Of a stretch of 32,000 bases of DNA, positions 3,430 through 28,587 are shown in pieces. A program made the position numbers and the translations under genes. The notes beneath the pieces are model-generated. The model was given only the letters and a program-made list of their open reading frames with translations, was not told where the DNA came from and did no database searches. Source of the DNA: Erysipelotrichaceae bacterium MTC7 (GTDB taxonomy: Bacteria > Bacillota_I > Bacilli_A > Erysipelotrichales > Erysipelotrichaceae); assembly GCA_001695645.1 (NCBI GenBank), contig LVZN01000078.1, positions 1-32,000 on the forward strand, given 5' to 3'. Position 1 is the stretch's first letter. Each line of letters begins with the position of its first letter.

Positions 3430-4563
3430 TCAGTTTTGCAATGCGTTTGACACCAATTTGACACCATCTTGCTTTTCAATGTATGCATTTAGTTGATTAC
3501 CAACATCACTTTTTTCATGATCTAAGTGGGCATAAATATCTGCAGTAATACGTATCGACTTATGGCCCATGAGTCTTTTCGCTTCTTGTAATGGCACTCC
3601 GGCATAAAATAGCATTGTACAATAATTATGGCGAAATACATATGGTGTAAGCCCGTCGCTATTGGCTGGTGGACGATTCTCTTGTAGTGCATAACGATTC
3701 ATAGCGTTTATAATTGTCTCCCAAAACCGTCGATATGCTTGTCCTGTGATGAGTTGATTATCTTTTACATTACGAAAGAAATAATCATCTCCAATATTAG
3801 AAATATAGAACTTGAAAAATGGAACTAAGTTATTCAAGATTGGCAAGTACCTTTTTCCTGCATCTGTTTTAGTCTCTTTCAAAATTGGTCTATTCTTCTT
3901 AAACACAAGAGCACGTTGAATAACCAATATTTTTTTGTTGAAGTCAAAATCTTTTGTATGGATAGCACGAGCTTCTTCAGGTCGTAAACCGAAATATTTG
4001 ATTAGATATACGAATGCTTGTTGTCGTTCAGTGAATTCAGCATGATCAGATAAGTAATTTTCATTATCGTTAAGTGGTCTTTTATCACTAGCAACATACT
4101 TTGGAATAACTAATCCATTGCAAGGATTTTTGCTTATCCAACCATCAATGATAGCTAGTTCAAAGATTTGTTTTGCACATATCTTTATCTTTTGACATGC
4201 ACGTGGATGTGCAATGTTTTCATTAATGATAGTTTGAATATGTTGCCTAGTAATCTCATCAAGATTTAAGTGGTCAAGACTTGCAAGGTGATTTAGCGTT
4301 GTAAGGTACATGCTTTGAGTGGCGTCGGATATATTAATACACTTTATCTTATACCATTCTTCTTTATACTTTCCAAACTTCACTTTGCTATTAACGTTTA
4401 TTCCAGCTGCAATTGAGAACTTCAGTTGGTCAGCTTGTTGCTCAACTTCTTTCTTTGTTTTACCATAAACGGTTTTATAGTTTGATTTGTTCGTTGTAGG
4501 ATCTATTCCAACATTTACTTTTATTTGCCATCTTCCATCTTTTCTCTTGGTTGCTTTTGGCAT
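3430..4563 (-). CDS. int: Tyrosine site-specific integrase
   Basis: N-terminal KRKDGRWQIKV SAM-like arm-binding region. C-terminal catalytic signature: FRHNYCTMLF, MGHKSIRITADIYAHL (R..HxxR..Y). RBS GGAGG lies upstream. Confidence 0.95.
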   Translation of the reverse strand: MPKATKRKDGRWQIKVNVGIDPTTNKSNYKTVYGKTKKEVEQQADQLKFSIAAGINVNSKVKFGKYKEEWYKIKCINISDATQSMYLTTLNHLASLDHLNLDEITRQHIQTIINENIAHPRACQKIKICAKQIFELAIIDGWISKNPCNGLVIPKYVASDKRPLNDNENYLSDHAEFTERQQAFVYLIKYFGLRPEEARAIHTKDFDFNKKILVIQRALVFKKNRPILKETKTDAGKRYLPILNNLVPFFKFYISNIGDDYFFRNVKDNQLITGQAYRRFWETIINAMNRYALQENRPPANSDGLTPYVFRHNYCTMLFYAGVPLQEAKRLMGHKSIRITADIYAHLDHEKSDVGNQLNAYIEKQDGVKLVSNALQN

Positions 4564-4837: not shown

Positions 4838-5812
4838 TTATAAATTGCTTTTTATATGATTCAGAATATTTTCTGGATCTTTTTTTAATTCTTCAAATAT
4901 GAAATTGATTGCCTTGTTTGAGTAAGAATAGCTCGGAGAAGAATGAATTGTGTTCACGTAACAAAAATCAGTCTTTTCTTTTATCTCAAAATGTTTACAA
5001 AAATTCGAAAAATGATAACTGTTAAATTTTGCTTTTTTATTGTCTTTATACGTGAGATAGATTCCTTCTTTTTTTAGTTTTCCATTTATGAGCTCAATAC
5101 ATTTTTTTGTTGTATACGCATGAGTTTTATTAGGGTCTTGTAGTTTATTAATTATTTTAACTCCAGTCTCCGCATTGGCATCTATTTTGACTTTTGAGGT
5201 AGCCTTGCTTTCGCTTTTTGTTATATAGTGGTGGTGATTAATTGAAATTGCAAAGTTAGCATTATTATTTTCACTTAAGTCATCAATATCACCTTTGTTT
5301 TTAAGTAATTTTGTTGCTATTTCTTCTGGATACTTGGCTACAATTTTGCTTTCATCTAACGTTTTCATACTAACAGATAGAGTAAGAAAATTTTGGGGGA
5401 TTATGGTTGTCATATCAATTTCATGAAATTGCTCCATTTTTTCATTAAAGTTTAATACGCAGGCTTGAAACAAAGGGACATAAACCATTTCATATTCCTC
5501 GGTTATAAAGTGTGTACTTGTGTTTCGAAGCTCAATGATTTTTTCAAGATTTCTTCGTAGTGGGTCTTTATCGTTGGTAAAGACTTTTTTAATGCAATTT
5601 TCTAAAGAAATTGTTCTATCTGGATTATCTGTGAAATAAATATTCTCACGTTTGTTCAACATATGGGCCTTTAGCATTAATTCCCATGAATTACATATAA
5701 ATAATGCAAAGCCCTCTACTCTATACCGTATAGTTGGTTTGTTATATATTTCTATAGCCATTTCAAAAGCTTCTACACTTTTTTTGATTAAACGATTTCT
5801 AATATCTTCCAT
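4838..5812 (-). CDS. DUF3644-like protein with an N-terminal HEPN-like Rx4H motif (candidate RNase/abortive-infection effector)
   Basis: N-terminus AIEIYNKPTIRYRVEGFALFICNSWELMLKA matches my recollection of DUF3644. ELRNTSTH gives R-x4-H (codons at 5525-5527 and 5510-5512). Start set to the ATG at 5812, which has GGGAGG upstream. Confidence 0.6.
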   Translation of the reverse strand: MEDIRNRLIKKSVEAFEMAIEIYNKPTIRYRVEGFALFICNSWELMLKAHMLNKRENIYFTDNPDRTISLENCIKKVFTNDKDPLRRNLEKIIELRNTSTHFITEEYEMVYVPLFQACVLNFNEKMEQFHEIDMTTIIPQNFLTLSVSMKTLDESKIVAKYPEEIATKLLKNKGDIDDLSENNNANFAISINHHHYITKSESKATSKVKIDANAETGVKIINKLQDPNKTHAYTTKKCIELINGKLKKEGIYLTYKDNKKAKFNSYHFSNFCKHFEIKEKTDFCYVNTIHSSPSYSYSNKAINFIFEELKKDPENILNHIKSNL

Positions 5813-5822
5813 ATATTCCTCC

Positions 5823-6113
5823 CTATTCCATGTTAATACCATAATCTTGTAGATACTGATCAGCATATGGCATAATCATATCTACTTCTTTTTCACAATC
5901 ATCTTCTGAACTAATATCTGTATTAAAGTGATTCTTTAGTATATGAATTAATTCGTGTTTTAGTGATTGTTTATTTACTTCAATACTGTAATTCCAATTT
6001 AACAAAACATAATAAGTATCTTCTAGTAAGTAACAAAGCCCCTTTGTTGTTTTAGGTAAACAACACCTAGTTACACATATGTTATTTTGTCTACAAAAAT
6101 CCTCGAATCCCAT
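5823..6113 (-). CDS. Minimal ImmA/IrrE-family (M78-like) zinc metallopeptidase
   Basis: HELIH (HExxH) at 5943-5957, preceded by a G....YYVLLN context typical of ImmA/IrrE cores. The ATG at 6113 has GGGAGG at 6122-6127. Its stop lies 10 nt before the next gene start. Confidence 0.65.
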   Translation of the reverse strand: MGFEDFCRQNNICVTRCCLPKTTKGLCYLLEDTYYVLLNWNYSIEVNKQSLKHELIHILKNHFNTDISSEDDCEKEVDMIMPYADQYLQDYGINME

Positions 6114-6301: not shown

Positions 6302-6799
6302 TTAAAATGTAAAATATTTCTTTATCTCATCATCGATTTTGTTCATATGTAATGGTGGTGCGAGTAAATGAAATAATGGGTCATATTCATTTATAAAAGG
6401 CTTAATTCTAAATTTACTTATCGTTGTAATGTTTTGAATAAGCGCATACGATTGTTTGATTTTAGAATGATAGAAATCTAAATTTTCTTGTAATTTGTCA
6501 GTGACACCTAGTAATTGTGATTTTAAAGCAATCCCTCTATTAAAATCTCGAGCCACTCTTTTTAGATATTCCTCGGTACCTGAATAAACTAAGGCAAATA
6601 TCATATTCTTTAATGGTAGATAATAACGCTTAGATTTAGAACTTAAAGGAATGACTGTAAGGACACCGTTAAAATTTGAGTCCTTTTTAGTTAGGACGAT
6701 AGCAAAATGTATTCCGCTTAATTCATTCCCAACTCCCTTGCCAAAATCCACAGATACTATTTGACCTCTTTTATAAGTTTGATATTTGATTGGTTTCAC
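6302..6799 (-). CDS. PemK/MazF-fold toxin-like protein with a ~50-aa insertion
   Basis: RGQIVSVDFGKGVGNELSGIHFAIVLT...VIPLSSKSK and ALIQNITTISKFRI align by eye to MazF GDLIWVDFDPTKGSEQAGHRPAVVLS...VPCTTQSK and DQVKSIAWRAR. GTG start directly abuts the upstream stop (TAAGTG). Confidence 0.65.
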   Translation of the reverse strand: MKPIKYQTYKRGQIVSVDFGKGVGNELSGIHFAIVLTKKDSNFNGVLTVIPLSSKSKRYYLPLKNMIFALVYSGTEEYLKRVARDFNRGIALKSQLLGVTDKLQENLDFYHSKIKQSYALIQNITTISKFRIKPFINEYDPLFHLLAPPLHMNKIDDEIKKYFTF

Positions 6800-7288
6800 T
6801 TAGTCCATACCTCTTTCAGCTCTTATACCCTTGATGACAGTTAGAATACGCTCCATGTCTTCAGGACTTAGATCCTTTGTTTTATCAAATAATAAGACTA
6901 AATTGTCATTTTCTCGAATAGAGTTATATATTTCTAATAATTCTGGATTGTTCTTTTCTAGATATTCGGTAGTGGGGTTAGATGGCTTGATAATGTCTGA
7001 GAATGATTTGTAATCATCATTTTCTTTATCGTTAAAATCAAAATAGAACATACCTTTGGAAAGTAATTCATCAATATCCAAATCAAGTGCCTTGCATATT
7101 AACTCCAAGGTATCCATGTCTACACGAGATTTACCATCCTCATATCTTTTGAGTGTGCTTTTTGTTTTCACTCCACCGATTGCTTCGCTTAATCGATCCA
7201 AACTTATATCTTTTTCTATTCTACGTTCTTTAAGAACTTTTCCGAGTTGCTTGTACAATTCCATATCAAATTTGTTAAGAGCAGTCAT
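6800..7288 (-). CDS. XRE-family HTH repressor (CI/ImmR-like, no S24 peptidase domain)
   Basis: N-terminal HTH_XRE pattern (LKERRIEKDISLDRLSEAIG...STLKRYEDG). Divergent from a cro-like gene across an operator-rich region. Confidence 0.85.
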   Translation of the reverse strand: MTALNKFDMELYKQLGKVLKERRIEKDISLDRLSEAIGGVKTKSTLKRYEDGKSRVDMDTLELICKALDLDIDELLSKGMFYFDFNDKENDDYKSFSDIIKPSNPTTEYLEKNNPELLEIYNSIRENDNLVLLFDKTKDLSPEDMERILTVIKGIRAERGMD

Positions 7289-14289: not shown

Positions 14290-15285
14290 ATGCAAAAAGT
14301 AATAAACATTAATGTAATTGCACCACATGAGAATAACCCTCGTGTAGACTTAGGTGATTTAACAGAATTGATTGACAGTATTAAAGAAAACGGAATTTTA
14401 CAACCGATAACAGTTGTTGAAGATGGCTTCTTATTCAAAGTGATAATGGGTCACAGACGTTTGGCAGCTGCTAAGGAAGCAGGTCTTACTGAATTAACGT
14501 GCGAAGTAGTGGCGATGGATGATAAGAAACAAGCAGCAACAATGTTACTTGAAAACATGCAACGTAAAGACCTTACTCCATATGAAGAAGCACGTGGCTT
14601 CCAAATGTGTTTGGATTTAGGTATCGAAGAAGATGAATTGAAACAACGTACTGGATTAAGTAAAAAGAAAATTAGACATCGACTTAAGATGCTTGAACTT
14701 GATCAGGACCGAGTTGAAAAGGCAAGTGGTGGTTCTATTGAAGAATATATTGCATTAGAAGAAATCAAAAACTTAGAAGAACGAAATCGATTAGTAGAAT
14801 TCGTAGGGACAGACAACTTTAATATGGAATTATTAAAAGCAAAAGAAAAGCAAAGTAAACCAATCGCACCGAACGTTGAAGTTACAGACGATGAAACGTC
14901 AATTGAACCTATTGACAAAGTCACTGATGAACCAAAATATGATTTAGATTTGATGTTTAAATTACGTATTAACTTCATGCAAAAAGTCTTTGAACGAAAA
15001 ATTGACAAAAATGAATTTGCTGAAGCAACAACTTTTCTAACTTCTGCACAACTAAAAAACAACTTCTCAATCAAAGGCAATTTCTCAACATTTGAAAAAG
15101 TGTGTGATGGAACTCCTGTAGATGAAGAAGAAATTGCAAAACATACAATCAATTACTTTGTTGTCACCGTATATTCGGGGATGGAACAACTAAAAGATGC
15201 AACTGTATACAATTATCTTAAAATTTTTGGCTACAAACTTAGTGATGATGAAAAGGCTTTCGTAAAAGAATTTAGCGAGGAATAG
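14290..15285 (+). CDS. ParB N-terminal domain (ParB-like nuclease/CTPase fold) protein
   Basis: NPRVDLGDLTELIDSIKENGILQPITV and GHRRLAAAKEAGL motifs. Confidence 0.85.
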   Translation: MQKVININVIAPHENNPRVDLGDLTELIDSIKENGILQPITVVEDGFLFKVIMGHRRLAAAKEAGLTELTCEVVAMDDKKQAATMLLENMQRKDLTPYEEARGFQMCLDLGIEEDELKQRTGLSKKKIRHRLKMLELDQDRVEKASGGSIEEYIALEEIKNLEERNRLVEFVGTDNFNMELLKAKEKQSKPIAPNVEVTDDETSIEPIDKVTDEPKYDLDLMFKLRINFMQKVFERKIDKNEFAEATTFLTSAQLKNNFSIKGNFSTFEKVCDGTPVDEEEIAKHTINYFVVTVYSGMEQLKDATVYNYLKIFGYKLSDDEKAFVKEFSEE

Positions 15286-19598: not shown

Positions 19599-19805
19599 AT
19601 GAAAAATTTTATAAAAGTAGAAATTGAAGAAGTTGATTTTAAAGAAATAGAGACGACTTATAAACTAATCAACTCATCGTGTGTAGTTGAATTAGACGAA
19701 GATTCAAAGACAATTATTGTTCTATACGGAAGTGACGTTGCAGTATACGGTTTGACCACAGAGTCTTTTGACAAGGTTTGGAAAACGTTACTCGGTGAAT
19801 GCTAA
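19599..19805 (+). CDS. Hypothetical phage protein
   Basis: GAAGGAG RBS 9 nt upstream of the ATG at 19599. Confidence 0.65.
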   Translation: MKNFIKVEIEEVDFKEIETTYKLINSSCVVELDEDSKTIIVLYGSDVAVYGLTTESFDKVWKTLLGEC

Positions 19806-20200
19806 TGAGAATCTATTTAGCCGGTCCTATTACAGGAACTGATGATTATGTGGAACGTTTCAAAGAAGTTGAAGAGTCGCTAACAAGTCCTGGTATAGAA
19901 GTTGTGAATCCAGTTACTGATCTGATACTAGATTATGAAGAGTACATCATTCGTGGATTGAAGATGCTAGCTGAATGTGATTGGATCTTTATGCTAGATG
20001 GTTGGGAAAATAGCAACGGAGCAAAACTAGAATACCAATATGCGAAAACAGTAGGAAAGAAGATTGTGTTTCAAGGTGATGACAACATGAATTTCTTTAT
20101 CGAAAAAAGTTTAGCAGGAATAACTGGCTTCTTTCAAAACTTAGCAAATGCAGTTGGTAGATCCTTTCCACTAGATTCACAGGAGTTAGATGATGAGTAG
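19805..20200 (+). CDS. DUF4406 (nucleoside 2-deoxyribosyltransferase-like) protein
   Basis: IYLAGPITG...F...E..L...G..V.NP and CDWIFMLDGWENSNGAKLEYQYA patterns. TAATG overlap start; an alternative ATG is at 19799. Confidence 0.7.
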   Translation: MRIYLAGPITGTDDYVERFKEVEESLTSPGIEVVNPVTDLILDYEEYIIRGLKMLAECDWIFMLDGWENSNGAKLEYQYAKTVGKKIVFQGDDNMNFFIEKSLAGITGFFQNLANAVGRSFPLDSQELDDE

Positions 20201-24626: not shown

Positions 24627-26138
24627 ATGGGGTGGTTTAAAAACATGTTACGATCATGGCTAAATATTCAAAATCTAAATGGACGTCAATTCTACATTCA
24701 AAACATGATGGACTTTGATGCTAACGTTTTCAAAAATTATATGTGGTATCGTGGGGATCCTGAAGAACTACATCAATTCTTCCAACAAGTAGGAAGTGAA
24801 GATGCATCTTTTTGGGCAACAGCTACACGTGGAGTGCGCAAAATCCATACAGGGATACCTGCACTTATTGCAGATGTATTATCGGATATTGTCATTCAAG
24901 ATATGAACGAAGTCACAGCAACTACTAGACAAGTTGACGTTGACTATATTTGCAACAAAAACGATATTGAAAACCTGTTAAGCAATTCACTGCCATACGT
25001 ATTGGTAAAAGGTGATGGTGCTTTCAAGATATCGTTTGATTTGAAAGTAGGAGATTATCCTATTATCGAATTCTACGAAGCCGATAAGGTCGAGTTCAAA
25101 TATGAACGAAGCAAGTATAGTGAAACTATATTCAAGAATTATATTGAACATGATAATCGTCATTATGTTCATAAAGAAATCTACGGATATGGCTATATAA
25201 AGAACGAACTCTACACATTGGATGATAACAAAAAGGTCCCTATGAATACTGTACCTGAATTAGCTGATGTCAAAGATTTCATTTTTGCTGGAGCTGAAGT
25301 TGATAAGCAAGGAATTATTTCAAAATATGGAACGCTGAACATGGCTGTTCCTTTTTTAATATTCAAAAGTGCTAAGTTCAAATATCGTGGGAAATCGATT
25401 TTTGAAACAAAACAAGGTAACTTCGATGCGTTAGATGAAGTTGTATCGCAATGGATAGATGCAATTCGCAAAGGGCGTACTACAAGATACATTCCTGAAC
25501 GTTTATTACCTAGAAACCCTAAAACGGGTGAGACATTAATGAAGAATGATTTTGAATCATCATATATTCAAACCAAAGGTGATATCTCTGAAGGCGGTAA
25601 TAAGATTCAAGTTGAAACACCTAATATCCAAGCTGAACAGTATTTACAAACATATGTGACAGTATTGGACCTGTGCTTGCAGGGGTTAATCAGTCCATCT
25701 ACTTTAGGAATTGATAACAAGAAGTTAGATAACGCTGAAGCACAACGTGAGAAAGAGAAAGCGACTCTTTATACACGTGGAAAAATCGTAGAAGCCTTAC
25801 TTAAGGTGATTCCAAAATTATTGAATGTATCGATAAAAGCGATGGATGTATATCATATGAAATCTATTACTGAAGATGATATCGAAATCTCAATTGCATT
25901 TGGTGAATATGCCAACCCTTCATTTGAATCAGTTGTAGAAACTATGGCAAAAGCTCGCCAAGGTCAATCGATGAGTACGGAGAAGATCGTTGATGAAATG
26001 TATGGTGATTCGCTAACTGCTGAAGAAAAAGAAGAAGAAGTAAAACGTATCAAAGAAGAGTATGGTCTAGTGCAAATGGATGAACCAGGAATGTTTAATT
26101 CTGATGTTCCTGACCCAACGTTGGAGGAGAATGTATGA
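24627..26138 (+). CDS. Portal protein (SPP1 gp6-like)
   Basis: Size, position after TerL, and an N-terminal WYRGDPEELHQFF pattern. Confidence 0.85.
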   Translation: MGWFKNMLRSWLNIQNLNGRQFYIQNMMDFDANVFKNYMWYRGDPEELHQFFQQVGSEDASFWATATRGVRKIHTGIPALIADVLSDIVIQDMNEVTATTRQVDVDYICNKNDIENLLSNSLPYVLVKGDGAFKISFDLKVGDYPIIEFYEADKVEFKYERSKYSETIFKNYIEHDNRHYVHKEIYGYGYIKNELYTLDDNKKVPMNTVPELADVKDFIFAGAEVDKQGIISKYGTLNMAVPFLIFKSAKFKYRGKSIFETKQGNFDALDEVVSQWIDAIRKGRTTRYIPERLLPRNPKTGETLMKNDFESSYIQTKGDISEGGNKIQVETPNIQAEQYLQTYVTVLDLCLQGLISPSTLGIDNKKLDNAEAQREKEKATLYTRGKIVEALLKVIPKLLNVSIKAMDVYHMKSITEDDIEISIAFGEYANPSFESVVETMAKARQGQSMSTEKIVDEMYGDSLTAEEKEEEVKRIKEEYGLVQMDEPGMFNSDVPDPTLEENV

Positions 26139-26389
26139 TCGTAAATGTACCAAGTAAAAACGGTGAAGTGAGAAGTTATAACATGAAGCCTAAAAAAGCA
26201 AAAGAGACTGTGCAAATGATTCGAGAAGCACATAAAGGACAAAACATGATTATTGCTCTTGAAAAGGGTAGTGTTATGGAACTTCGCAACGATAAATATG
26301 ACACTGCAATCGAAGTGTTAGATGCAGTAAAAGACTGGATTAAGAAAGGCTATAAAGTCTATTCAGTCAAAAACATTATGAAGGTGTAA
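26135..26389 (+). CDS. Hypothetical phage protein
   Basis: ATGA overlap with the portal stop. Confidence 0.6.
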   Translation: MIVNVPSKNGEVRSYNMKPKKAKETVQMIREAHKGQNMIIALEKGSVMELRNDKYDTAIEVLDAVKDWIKKGYKVYSVKNIMKV

Positions 26390-26390
26390 T

Positions 26391-28109
26391 ATGGACGAGT
26401 ACAACATCTCCGAGATATACAAAGAGATGGAGAACTACCTAATCGAATCCGTGATGCGTAATATGAAGCGTCATACCGATTGGGAAACTACTGAAGATTT
26501 TAAGTGGGATGCATGGCAAGTAAGACAACTAGAAGCATTAGAAGAATATCGCAAACGAAACCTTTCGTATGTAAATAAACGCAGTAACACCGTGAATATT
26601 AAGCTTGAAGAATTAATCAAGCAATCATATGAGCATGGTGGCATGGAAGAAGAAATAAAGATTCTGAATGCTATTAAGAAAGGTGCTAAATTAAAACGTT
26701 CTAAAGGTATTGATGCAAACTTCTTTAAGATTAACGATCGTAAACTTTCAGCATTGATAAAAGCAACTCAAAAAGACTTAACAAAAGCATCACATGCAAT
26801 GTTGAGAAAATCGAATGATGAATATCGTAAAGTAATTCATAAAGCTGCGATGTTTGCAAATACAGGAACGACTACAGTGGGTCAAGCAATTGATATGGCT
26901 ACAAAAGACTTTGTAAAGAAAGGTATTAATTGCATCCAGTATTCAAATGGACGAGTTGTTAATATCAACACGTATGCAGAGATGGCTATTCGAACTGCGA
27001 ACAAGCGTGGGTATTTAAGTGGTGAAGGTGATAAACGGAAGGAATGGGGAATCCATACTGTTCTTGTAAGCCAATATGGCGCATGTAGTCCTACTTGCTT
27101 GCCGTGGCAAGGAAAAGTATACGTTGATGATGTTTGGTCGGGAGGTGCGGCCAAAGAGGCTGAGGAGCAGGGTTATCCACTTCTAAGTCAAGCAATTGCT
27201 GATGGTCTTTATCATCCAAACTGCAAACATAGTCACACAACGTACTTCCCTGGTATTACCGAAATGCCTAAAGCAGCTGATGTTGCAAAAACTCAAGAAA
27301 ATTCACAAGCAGTTGCTCAACAACGATATAACGAACGACAAATCAGGAGTTATAAACGATTAGAAGAAAATACATTAGATCCAGATAATCGTGAGAAATA
27401 TGCAACTCAAAAGAGATTTTGGCAAGCTAAACAAAGAAAACTTGTTGATGATACTGATGGAATGAAACGCAACTATAAACGCGAATCGATTGAGGGGAAG
27501 GGTTATCGGAAAACTGATAATTCAACTGAAAAAGCCACAGTAAATAACGTTAAACGAATTGGCACTAATGCAGTTAACCAAGATATAGTAAAATCGGAAG
27601 ACTATAAATCGAAATTCCAACAACTTAGTAATAATCAAACGTTGAATAGCGCTATTCATAAACAGACTACACATATACTAGCAAAAGCAAACAACACTGA
27701 TACTGAGTATTTGAGGATATTAGATGCTAAAACCGGTGAAACTATCATAAGTGCACAAGGTAAAAAAGATGCACTTGAAGTAGGTTTAAATGAAGCACAA
27801 AAGAAAATATTAAGCAATCATAAAGGTCAAGTTGTAGCAATACACAATCACCCTACGAATATATTGCCAACAGGTTCTGATTTTGTCGTTTCCGGAGCAC
27901 GTAATTATGATTTTGGTATAGTGGCCACTCATTATGGGGATTTGTATAAATATAGTCATGGTAAAAGAAGATTCACATCAACATTTTATGCCAAACAAAT
28001 TGACAAGTATTCTAGTGCACCCTATAATATGGGTGTAAAAGAAGCACAAGAAAAGACACTTGATTTATTGAGAAAGGAGTATGGTATATTATGCGAAAAA
28101 ATAAAATAG
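26391..28109 (+). CDS. Head morphogenesis protein (MuF/SPP1 gp7 family) fused to a C-terminal JAB/MPN-like domain
   Basis: MuF core (YAEMAIRTANKRGY, CSPTCLPWQGKVY, LYHPNCKHSHTTY). About 280 extra C-terminal residues contain HNHPTNILPTGSD (27843-27881), resembling the RadC/JAMM HxHPx6-7(S/T)xxD signature. Confidence 0.8.
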   Translation: MDEYNISEIYKEMENYLIESVMRNMKRHTDWETTEDFKWDAWQVRQLEALEEYRKRNLSYVNKRSNTVNIKLEELIKQSYEHGGMEEEIKILNAIKKGAKLKRSKGIDANFFKINDRKLSALIKATQKDLTKASHAMLRKSNDEYRKVIHKAAMFANTGTTTVGQAIDMATKDFVKKGINCIQYSNGRVVNINTYAEMAIRTANKRGYLSGEGDKRKEWGIHTVLVSQYGACSPTCLPWQGKVYVDDVWSGGAAKEAEEQGYPLLSQAIADGLYHPNCKHSHTTYFPGITEMPKAADVAKTQENSQAVAQQRYNERQIRSYKRLEENTLDPDNREKYATQKRFWQAKQRKLVDDTDGMKRNYKRESIEGKGYRKTDNSTEKATVNNVKRIGTNAVNQDIVKSEDYKSKFQQLSNNQTLNSAIHKQTTHILAKANNTDTEYLRILDAKTGETIISAQGKKDALEVGLNEAQKKILSNHKGQVVAIHNHPTNILPTGSDFVVSGARNYDFGIVATHYGDLYKYSHGKRRFTSTFYAKQIDKYSSAPYNMGVKEAQEKTLDLLRKEYGILCEKIK

Positions 28110-28246
28110 TGAAGTACTTCGACGGAATCATTTTGACTGACAGAACTCCTGAAGAGATAGAAGCATCTATCCAAGAAGAATTAGAAAAAATGAAAAATTT
28201 TGATAGTTGGCAAGAAATCGCTGAACATGAAGGAATAGATTATTAA
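28091..28246 (+). CDS. Small acidic protein, 51 aa, overlapping the end of the MuF fusion gene
   Basis: Below the ORF-track cutoff. AAGGAG lies 11 nt upstream of the ATG at 28091. A terminator follows. Confidence 0.45.
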   Translation: MRKNKIVKYFDGIILTDRTPEEIEASIQEELEKMKNFDSWQEIAEHEGIDY

Positions 28247-28265
28247 TACGAATACATTAACTAAT

Positions 28266-28292
28266 GCACTCTTTAAACAGAGTGCTTTTTTT
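28266..28292 (+). terminator. Terminator inside the late region
   Basis: GCACTCT-ttaaac-AGAGTGC followed by T7. Confidence 0.75.
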
Positions 28293-28311
28293 ATACCCGA
28301 AAGGAGGAATC

Positions 28312-28479
28312 ATGAAAGTAAAGTGTATCAAGGAATACTTCGATAAACTTCAAAGCGACTATATTAAGCCAGGAAGTGTATTCGATACTACTGAAGGAAG
28401 GGCGAAAGTTCTCATTGATCAAAAAGTAGTTGAAGAAGTAAAAGAAAAACCTAAACCAATAAAAGAAGGCGCTAAGTAG
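28312..28479 (+). CDS. Small hypothetical protein, 55 aa
   Basis: AAAGGAGG RBS precedes the ATG at 28312. Bracketed by hairpin/T-run elements. Confidence 0.55.
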   Translation: MKVKCIKEYFDKLQSDYIKPGSVFDTTEGRAKVLIDQKVVEEVKEKPKPIKEGAK

Positions 28480-28587
28480 AGCGCTTTTCTTTTTGCCCAA
28501 TCCGCTCATGGCTTAAAAAGGTGCGAGAAGATGGTGAGACACACCTAAAACTGATAAGCGTGAGACACACGAAAAACAGGAGGAAAT

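Follow-up and report, generated by a model that had tools for sequence, protein, structure and literature searches.

Polymorphic toxins of temperate phages that are fused to MuF-type head proteins have been described together with small adjacent immunity genes in two surveys (PMC3482391, PMC5576092). Such MuF-fused effectors are phage proteins delivered with the DNA, and only two types of cargo, Apk2 and Bxa, have been characterized and validated experimentally as MuF toxins (PMC11699363, PMC12226406). The cargo listed in the sections on these systems consists of nucleases, HExxH peptidases, ADP-ribosyltransferases (ARTs), RelA-like enzymes, and deaminases, whereas a JAB domain is not listed as MuF cargo in the corresponding parts of Zhang 2012 (PMC3482391), Iyer 2017 (PMC5512222), and Jamet 2017 (PMC5576092). 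Here we describe a gene from a prophage of Erysipelotrichaceae bacterium MTC7 (contig LVZN01000078.1, positions 1 to 32,000; this whole stretch of 32,000 nucleotides is called the window), which codes for a MuF protein with a predicted RadC-like JAB/MPN domain at its C-terminus and is followed by an overlapping open reading frame (ORF) for an acidic protein of 51 amino acids (aa). We consider it fairly likely, with a probability of about 0.6, that the two genes specify a virion-packaged JAB hydrolase and its separately transcribed cognate inhibitor ("immunity" protein), representing a member of the MuF polymorphic toxin/effector family. New is the RadC-like JAB cargo family with its very small putative cognate partner, and the codon-embedded promoter of the latter adds to its interest, while the MuF architecture class as such is already known.

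The locus shares with the described MuF toxins an N-terminal MuF module whose coding region lies next to the portal gene among the head genes of a prophage, an enzymatic C-terminus that varies on homologous MuF N-termini, and a small ORF directly downstream that tracks the toxin domain and is a candidate immunity gene. It differs from them, as far as the pertinent sections of those papers go, in the unusually small size of the partner (31-69 aa), in the overlap of this partner with the predicted toxin gene, and in a conserved promoter inside the toxin coding sequence. The MuF gene contains the following features:

26391-28109, forward strand: gene for a MuF-type minor head protein of 572 aa with a C-terminal JAB-like cargo, from the ORF list, matching phrog_581
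26403-27449, forward strand: MuF2 core (Phage_min_cap2, PF06152), residues 5-353, E-value 1.1e-52, 179.7 bits against a cut-off of 26.3
27531-28106, forward strand: predicted RadC-like JAB/MPN-fold domain, residues 381-572, with N-terminal helices, the JAB core, and two C-terminal helices plus a strand
27705-27707, forward strand: E439 codon; this predicted catalytic Glu opens the first core strand and is shared by 99% of 194 family sequences
27843-27881, forward strand: motif H485-N-H487-P-T-N-I-L-P-T494-G-S496-D497 with the predicted metal ligands and hydroxyl residue, read directly
27930-27932, forward strand: H514 codon; this His, which directly follows the strand spanning domain positions 128-133, is conserved in 96% of 201 sequences

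The 572-aa protein belongs to the MuF superfamily (MuF2 type), as is evident from the PF06152 match and from its position just downstream of the portal gene. The match to phrog_581 ("minor head protein") covers residues 3-549 (E-value 5e-96), indicating that proteins of this extended architecture are typical of a phage family. The sequence LYHPNCKHSHTTY, near which the original prediction had placed the end of the MuF core, is indeed found at about nt 27205-27246, but the extension beyond the core comprises only about 220 residues instead of the 280 assumed at that time, because the PF06152 match reaches residue 353. This extension consists of a linker of about 27 residues and a domain of about 192 residues. 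The origin of the gene from a temperate phage is apparent from an integrase gene (3430-4563), a repressor gene (6800-7288), and the adjoining host mutY and DegV genes at 214-2518.

The JAB/MPN-like character that had been proposed for the C-terminal domain is borne out by comparisons of structures and of profiles. An AlphaFold2 model of the domain, based on an alignment of 63 sequences, reached a pLDDT of 95 and a pTM of 0.89. Searching the PDB with Foldseek, the RadC structure 2qlc was retrieved first (E-value 0.02), followed by PfJAMM1 (5ld9/5lda), BRCC36, BubCD, and AF2198, and the alignment with PfJAMM1 5ld9 showed a probability of 0.97 and a TM-score of 0.55 at a root-mean-square deviation of 3.8 Å over 107 columns. 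RadC, JAMM, MPN, or other JAB-containing proteins account for 8 of the 12 top chains, and proteins of the cytidine deaminase fold, a known sister fold, rank after the JAB structures. The matches in BFVD are headed by "minor capsid proteins" of 520-633 aa from gut viromes with the same C-terminal domain (E-values down to 5e-22), after which RadC, MPN, and "metalloprotease" proteins of phages appear. Finally, a profile of 195 family sequences was aligned by hhalign with a profile of Escherichia coli YicR and 120 RadC homologues, yielding a probability of 92.3% (P-value 5.6e-7) in local mode over 42 columns that span the helix-strand-HNHP...D core, and 62% in global mode.

None of the Pfam or NCBIfam models reaches its cut-off for the C-terminal domain, and NCBIfam contains no model for the whole protein or the small ORF either. 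RadC is the commonest weak Pfam match within the family (14 of 63 members, best E-value 0.0014); the homologue from an Anaerostipes phage additionally gives a weak match to Prok-JAB, and Toxin-JAB1 is weakly matched by one of the 63 members (E-value 0.025). As the cut-off of RadC is missed while homology is recognized between the profiles, the domain should be regarded as a relative outside the RadC family as currently modeled. An hmmsearch of the PDB sequences retrieved 2qlc at an E-value of 0.48, and searches of these sequences with the single sequence or a profile of four sequences returned only regions around His-tags and thrombin sites, FtsH, and an SH3 domain. Weak matches to the Pfam models PGDYG, BsuPI, and CBM_5_12 and to the PADLOC model DrmMII (16 bits) were taken as chance.

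The motif had been located correctly at nt 27843-27881 by the original prediction, with the flanking residues V-A-I and F lying just outside these coordinates. Among about 200 family representatives sharing at most 50% identity, H485, H487, and D497 are conserved without exception and P493 in 99%, and the spacing HxH-x9-D is kept in 195 of 199 sequences. Position 494 is occupied by Thr in 55% and by Ser in 39% of the representatives (94% together), which settles the earlier concern that the replacement of the canonical Ser by Thr might render the activity doubtful. H514 may be equivalent to the His of the RadC "DH" motif ("LDH" in YicR), although the profile alignment did not confirm this correspondence. 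An exhaustive profile search for the domain yielded 1,335 cluster representatives (50% identity) at E<1e-3, 1,007 of them at E<1e-10, and since the motif is invariant in a family comprising over 1,000 such representatives, it is not a product of chance. The domain is nearly always found at the extreme C-terminus of MuF proteins of 450-840 aa. It thus represents a large unannotated family of some 1,300 clusters, which occurs mainly in prophages of gut Firmicutes (Lachnospiraceae, Eubacterium, Anaerostipes, Lactobacillus). As judged from the sequences and the model, the domain exhibits the JAB/MPN fold and the E...HxH...[ST]xxD motif of the JAMM superfamily with a loop shorter by one residue, and constitutes a distinct family of the JAB/MPN superfamily with RadC as nearest relative and an intact predicted catalytic set (E439, H485, H487, T494, D497).

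Several proteins of the family deviate in their architecture. Two apparent stand-alone JAB proteins in the protein database were rejected as such, because P0035 is a truncated prophage remnant with a D497N exchange and P0048 (336 aa, L101 1-1152) is cut by a contig end. In the latter, the region just before the JAB domain matches a Pfam portal model (E-value 8.5e-10), and an overlapping ORF of 47 aa comes after the gene; the cargo may therefore also occur on portal-containing or portal-MuF fusion proteins. Three members (P0090, 812 aa; P0066, 837 aa; P0101, 811 aa) are longer by about 250 residues, and a weak match to anthrax-lethal-factor-like (ATLF) domains between the MuF2 and JAB regions of P0090 (E-value 0.003) suggests the existence of MuF proteins with two cargo domains.

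RadC-like JAB domains are among the most widespread domains of mobile elements without a known biochemical function. The domain of the window resembles those of PF04002 (YicR, YeeS/YkfG/YfjY, 2qlc) in its fold as detected by Foldseek, in the core Glu...HNHP...P-[ST]-x-x-D, possibly in the His after the next strand, and in its association with mobile elements, where RadC-like domains also occur in the "polyvalent" proteins of phages (PMC5512222). Unlike these proteins, it stays below the Pfam cut-off, has an HxH-Asp loop shorter by one residue, is enlarged by additional conserved helices on the N-terminal side (R-x-G-T-N...Y-I-x-S...K-F) and by a helical stretch at the C-terminus, and has MuF as its fusion partner in place of an HhH/UPF0758 N-domain. 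The RadC clade has been argued to lack the groove for the ubiquitin tail and may act on nucleic acids, according to Zhang 2012 (PMC3482391) and Iyer 2017 (PMC5512222). The JAB toxins of other polymorphic toxin systems, as covered in the respective section of PMC3482391, likewise contain the JAB fold as a C-terminal module with a dedicated immunity protein (a putative one in our case) and belong to a divergent RadC-like clade with predicted non-ubiquitin-like substrates. They are, however, delivered by type II, type VI, or type VII secretion systems or by TcdB/TcaC proteins with RHS repeats, and their immunity proteins are of the Imm65 or NTF2-like types. The family described here appears to be separate from them, as only one of its 63 members matches Toxin-JAB1, and that weakly. 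The deubiquitinase-type JAMM/MPN+ enzymes (Rpn11, AMSH, BRCC36, PfJAMM1, Cap3, BilC) share the fold and the Glu/His/His/Ser(Thr)/Asp pattern of the metal site, but show an x10 spacing in place of HxH-x9-D; moreover, the cassette carries no linked genes for ubiquitin-like (Ubl) proteins or E1/E2 enzymes in the loci examined, and its sequence affinity is to RadC.

The second component of the locus is the small gene at the end of the MuF-JAB gene, for which the following features were recorded:

28000-28028, forward strand: sigma-70/sigma-A-type promoter TTGACA-17 nt-TATAAT embedded in the JAB coding region, with the small ORF beginning about 60 nt further downstream
28074-28079, forward strand: ribosome-binding site AAGGAG of the 51-aa ORF, read directly
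28091-28246, forward strand: acidic 51-aa partner gene, a putative cognate inhibitor or immunity gene, overlapping the end of the JAB gene by 19 nt and matching phrog_30750 (E-value 1e-6)
28266-28293, forward strand: intrinsic terminator GCACTCT-TTAAAC-AGAGTGC (hairpin 28266-28285) followed by a T-run, from a terminator scan

These features agree with the original prediction of an acidic ORF of 51 aa that overlaps the gene end and is provided with its own AAGGAG sequence and a terminator. The charges of the two products are complementary, with an isoelectric point (pI) of 4.5 and a net charge of -6 for the 51-aa protein and values of 9.4 and +8 for the JAB domain. In all 80 loci retrieved from viral contigs with the domain profile, the start of an ORF of 31-69 aa lies 13-33 nt ahead of the MuF-JAB stop codon, mostly at the distance of 18 nt that is also seen in the window, and jackhmmer recognized 72 of the 81 small-ORF sequences (80 viral loci plus the window) as homologous. 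The 34 distinct sequences among them share the motif [ST]PEE...L.EE....[ED]W and are all acidic (pI 4.1-5.2). The same arrangement is present in those loci of bacterial genomes in which the motif was located, namely in Eubacterium, Lachnospiraceae, Lactobacillus johnsonii, L. kalixensis, Anaerotignum, and Tractidigestivibacter, while a hidden Markov model of the small ORF did not match any downstream ORF in three control phages with other or no cargo (Javan351, SMO_1P, phiCp-A). The 51-aa ORF is thus a genuine gene.

A comparison with related phages shows that the cargo is exchanged between MuF backbones. Homologous head modules share 43-48% identity with the window in the portal protein, 39-45% in the MuF core, 35-38% in the scaffold protein, and 30-53% in the major capsid protein (MCP), yet MuF cores of this range carry other cargo domains or none: HEFGH-containing and HERAH-containing domains are attached to the MuF2 cores of Streptococcus phage Javan351 and Solobacterium phage SMO_1P, respectively, and the MuF protein of Clostridium perfringens phage phiCp-A (414 aa) lacks a C-terminal cargo domain, while that of Anaerostipes phage AC844P2 contains the JAB variant HNHPQGLPPSLSD. 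These sequence comparisons show that the C-terminal domain is dispensable for head modules of this type and is an accessory cargo rather than a part of the assembly machinery. In turn, PF04233 (MuF1) as well as PF06152 (MuF2) backbones carry the JAB domain, and 144 pairs were observed that combine JAB domains of at least 55% identity with MuF N-termini of less than 30%. Such a pattern characterizes the MuF polymorphic toxins or "polyvalent" cargo proteins described in Zhang 2012, Iyer 2017, and Jamet 2017. Pairwise identities of the small ORFs correlate with those of the JAB domains (rho 0.65) and much less with those of the MuF N-termini (rho 0.24). The co-occurrence on both backbones, the difference between these coefficients, and the 144 discordant pairs indicate that the two genes move as a unit, and at the level of sequence comparison the JAB domain and the 51-aa gene are shown to constitute a mobile cassette of two genes that has become attached to different MuF backbones. 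As a side observation, the HExxH domains of Javan351 (L082 2995-4764) and SMO_1P (L083 2998-4545) have no Pfam match and are followed by small ORFs of 85 and 78 aa, so these genes probably represent further uncharacterized pairs of MuF cargo and partner.

The promoter sequence at 28000-28028 is the sole perfect match to TTGACA-17-TATAAT in the 32-kb window, where 0.03 would be expected. Its two elements coincide with conserved codons of the JAB domain, [I/V]-D-K (xTT GAC Axx) and Y-N (TAT AAT), and 10-12 of its 12 positions are matched at the same codons and with the same spacing in 14 of 16 JAB clusters (70% identity). Of 22 sequences, 20 use GAC for the Asp of the -35 element, as do 6 of the 7 clusters with [IV]DK, compared to 23% GAC elsewhere in these genes; T is the last base of the preceding Ile or Val codon for 14 of 15 clusters, compared to 30-44% gene-wide, and the Asn codon is AAT in 28 of 28 cases. 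This choice of non-preferred synonymous codons indicates that the promoter is maintained in most lineages. It provides a clean example of dual coding within the codons of the enzyme itself and predicts that the putative immunity gene is expressed in lysogens. On the 3' side of the small ORF, terminator hairpins were found in 23 of 38 distinct related loci by a strict search allowing no mismatch.

The operons of nuclease colicins (E3, E9, and others) contain a small acidic immunity gene after the toxin gene, which is transcribed both together with the toxin gene and from its own promoter in the 3' part of the latter. The locus described here displays the same succession of a promoter in the 3' end of the enzyme gene, a small acidic gene, and a terminator, whereas colicins are plasmid-borne, SOS-induced, and secreted, and are unrelated in fold and delivery route. 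A decayed copy of the cassette was observed on the chromosome of an uncultured Eubacterium (L098 3780-4760; also L099 and L100), where a truncated MuF-JAB remnant adjoins a tRNA-like sequence between spoIIR and a dehydrogenase gene. The Asp ligand is exchanged in this remnant (D497N), and the perfect internal TTGACA-17-TATAAT sequence, a partner ORF of 50 aa, and the terminator have been retained. It may represent an orphan immunity gene that has outlived its toxin, or alternatively a case of recent decay.

In the reading we favor, the MuF2 protein would be built into the capsid beside the portal with the JAB domain as C-terminal cargo, and the enzyme, on the model of SPP1 gp7 and the MuF toxins, would be ejected with the DNA into a fresh host cell that lacks immunity and would hydrolyze a cytoplasmic target there. 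The 51-aa protein is proposed to bind and block the JAB domain, thereby protecting the producing and lysogenic cell. Its gene appears to be translationally coupled to the MuF-JAB gene and in addition to have its own consensus promoter and terminator, so that it could be expressed while the late operon is silent, as in a lysogen. A toxin/immunity pair had already been named as an alternative in the original prediction, and it is this alternative that has gained the strongest new support, from the strict co-occurrence of the two genes across MuF backbones and from the separate promoter and terminator. Our best guess for the substrate, by analogy with the RadC and Tox-JAB clades, is either a nucleic acid or nucleotide or a peptide bond; the affinity to RadC and the charge pattern lean towards the former, and the HExxH domains that relatives carry in this place towards the latter. 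A JAB version with a putative cognate inhibitor and a delivery route would offer a direct way to the substrate, and the partner is genetically tractable.

Some observations weigh against this reading. The Foldseek matches with solved JAB structures have modest E-values (0.02-0.2), the recorded scores with Pfam RadC are 14.2-14.7 bits (14.5 for the window) at a cut-off of 22.1, and the stretch from HxH to Asp falls short of that in canonical JAMM proteins by one residue, with x6 preceding the hydroxyl residue. Some of the correlation between JAB domains and small ORFs would arise simply because neighboring genes are inherited together, and a stand-alone, single-sequence model of the 51-aa protein, showing a β-hairpin and one long helix, is of low confidence (pLDDT 65). 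The promoter match is missing in the L034-type lineage (633-aa proteins) and in the locus from the high-GC actinobacterium Tractidigestivibacter, and expression of the scaffold and capsid genes requires that transcription pass a terminator lying within the late operon.

Among the other explanations, the small protein might serve as an obligatory cofactor, activator, packaging adaptor, or substrate of the JAB enzyme instead of inhibiting it, in which case the internal promoter would only raise its stoichiometry. Strict co-occurrence and translational coupling would suit any obligate partner, and the conserved C-terminal [ED]-W-[PE]-E motif of the small protein could be a recognition element, but we regard this possibility as doubtful, since an immunity-gene promoter inside the toxin gene is the arrangement known from nuclease colicins, and since the Eubacterium remnant has kept the small gene and its signals after losing the Asp ligand of the enzyme, which is more easily explained by an orphan immunity gene. 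In addition, inhibition is the role of the small neighboring ORFs of Apk2 and Bxa, the closest characterized analogues (PMC11699363, PMC12226406). The possibility put forward in the original prediction, an isopeptidase acting on the conjugates of the cyclic oligonucleotide-based antiphage signaling system (CBASS) or of Bil systems, would imply an injected anti-defense deconjugase that removes Ubl conjugates of type II CBASS (Cap2/Cap3), Bil, or Bub, while the small protein of a prophage would inhibit the enzyme of superinfecting relatives. It is consistent with the Ubl-specific JAMM structures (PfJAMM1 5ld9/5lda, BRCC36) and BubCD of the Bub system among the top structural matches, with the apparently intact catalytic set, with the view given in PMC5512222 that MuF cargo enters the cell with the DNA, and with an inhibitor expressed by the prophage, which would be compatible with the exclusion of related phages. 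This proposal is nevertheless unlikely and is not supported by the present analysis, because the nearest sequence relative is RadC, whose clade is argued in PMC3482391 and PMC5512222 to lack the ubiquitin-tail groove. Moreover, none of the loci examined shows a Ubl, E1/E2, or defense gene linked to the cassette, a harmless deconjugase has no obvious need for a strictly co-inherited and translationally coupled partner, and literature searches turned up no precedent for an anti-defense JAB protein of phages. The more elaborate scenario, in which the deconjugase strips the Ubl marks of these systems and the prophage makes the 51-aa inhibitor constitutively, so that lysogens would disarm the counter-defense of superinfecting relatives, is distinctly unlikely; if true, it would describe a virion-delivered anti-defense enzyme paired with a prophage-encoded blocker.

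A role in morphogenesis, either as a protease for capsid assembly or maturation or in the self-release of MuF, with the small protein as assembly chaperone or timing inhibitor, would fit the position of the gene in the head module between portal and scaffold, and a scan of head-module ORFs in the window did not reveal a prohead protease encoded separately. Some MuF homologues are also named "capsid maturation protease" in SEA-PHAGES-style records, and related MuF proteins bear other HExxH-type domains. However, homologous head modules are assembled with unrelated C-terminal domains or, as in phiCp-A (414 aa), without any, and the domain shifts together with the small ORF between MuF1 and MuF2 backbones. 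As a constitutive-type promoter and a terminator for the partner would also be unexpected in a late assembly factor, such a role appears quite improbable. It is very improbable that the domain is a catalytically dead structural module or one binding DNA or the portal, accompanied by an unrelated moron. The atypical spacing of the motif and the inactive BECR domain of the MuF protein of phage Mu (PMC5512222) could be quoted in its favor, but the Glu, His, His, and Asp residues are 99-100% conserved over the approximately 200 representatives with Thr or Ser at position 494 in 94%, and the small ORF tracks the domain and not the backbone.

The cassette is embedded in a head module of the siphovirus type with the standard order TerS-TerL-portal-(84-aa ORF)-MuF-two small ORFs-scaffold-MCP, of which the genes outside the cassette are:

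22785, TerS, and 23224, TerL: terminase genes, upstream of the portal gene
24627-26138: portal gene, separated from the MuF gene by one small ORF
26135-26389, forward strand: ORF of 84 aa between the portal and MuF genes with a weak match to phrog_25639
28588, scaffold gene, and 29250, MCP gene: downstream of the MuF-JAB gene and two small ORFs

Homologues of the 84-aa ORF are present in 18 related loci of the MuF2 type, indicating that this ORF tracks the backbone and not the JAB domain. The second small ORF (28312-28479, forward strand) lies between the partner gene and the scaffold gene and codes for 55 aa from an ATG at 28312; it has the ribosome-binding site AGGAGG, matches phrog_2616 of unknown function, and is associated with a terminator-like hairpin of its own at 28465-28488. 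It was rejected as a JAB-linked gene, because it matched only itself among the 80 JAB loci. The presence of two terminators upstream of the scaffold and capsid genes implies read-through or antitermination of late transcription. A nucleotide search of GenBank phages with the MuF-JAB gene and 20 kb of the window revealed no close relative, and the sole match was a helicase segment with 74% identity.

Some further genes of the prophage were recorded outside the head module. An ORF of 164 aa beside the repressor gene (6302-6799, reverse strand) matches PHROGs annotated as "MazE-like antitoxin / MazF-like growth inhibitor" (E-value 2.5e-45), and an ORF of 341 aa and unknown function between the integrase gene and the ORFs of the lysogeny module (4838-5866, reverse strand) matches phrog_9605 (E-value 1e-124). 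Both are candidates for lysogen-expressed morons or defense genes. The replication module codes for a ParB-like nuclease or partition-type protein (14290-15285, forward strand) and a small protein resembling nucleoside 2-deoxyribosyltransferases or MazG (19799-20200, forward strand), which may serve in nucleotide manipulation.

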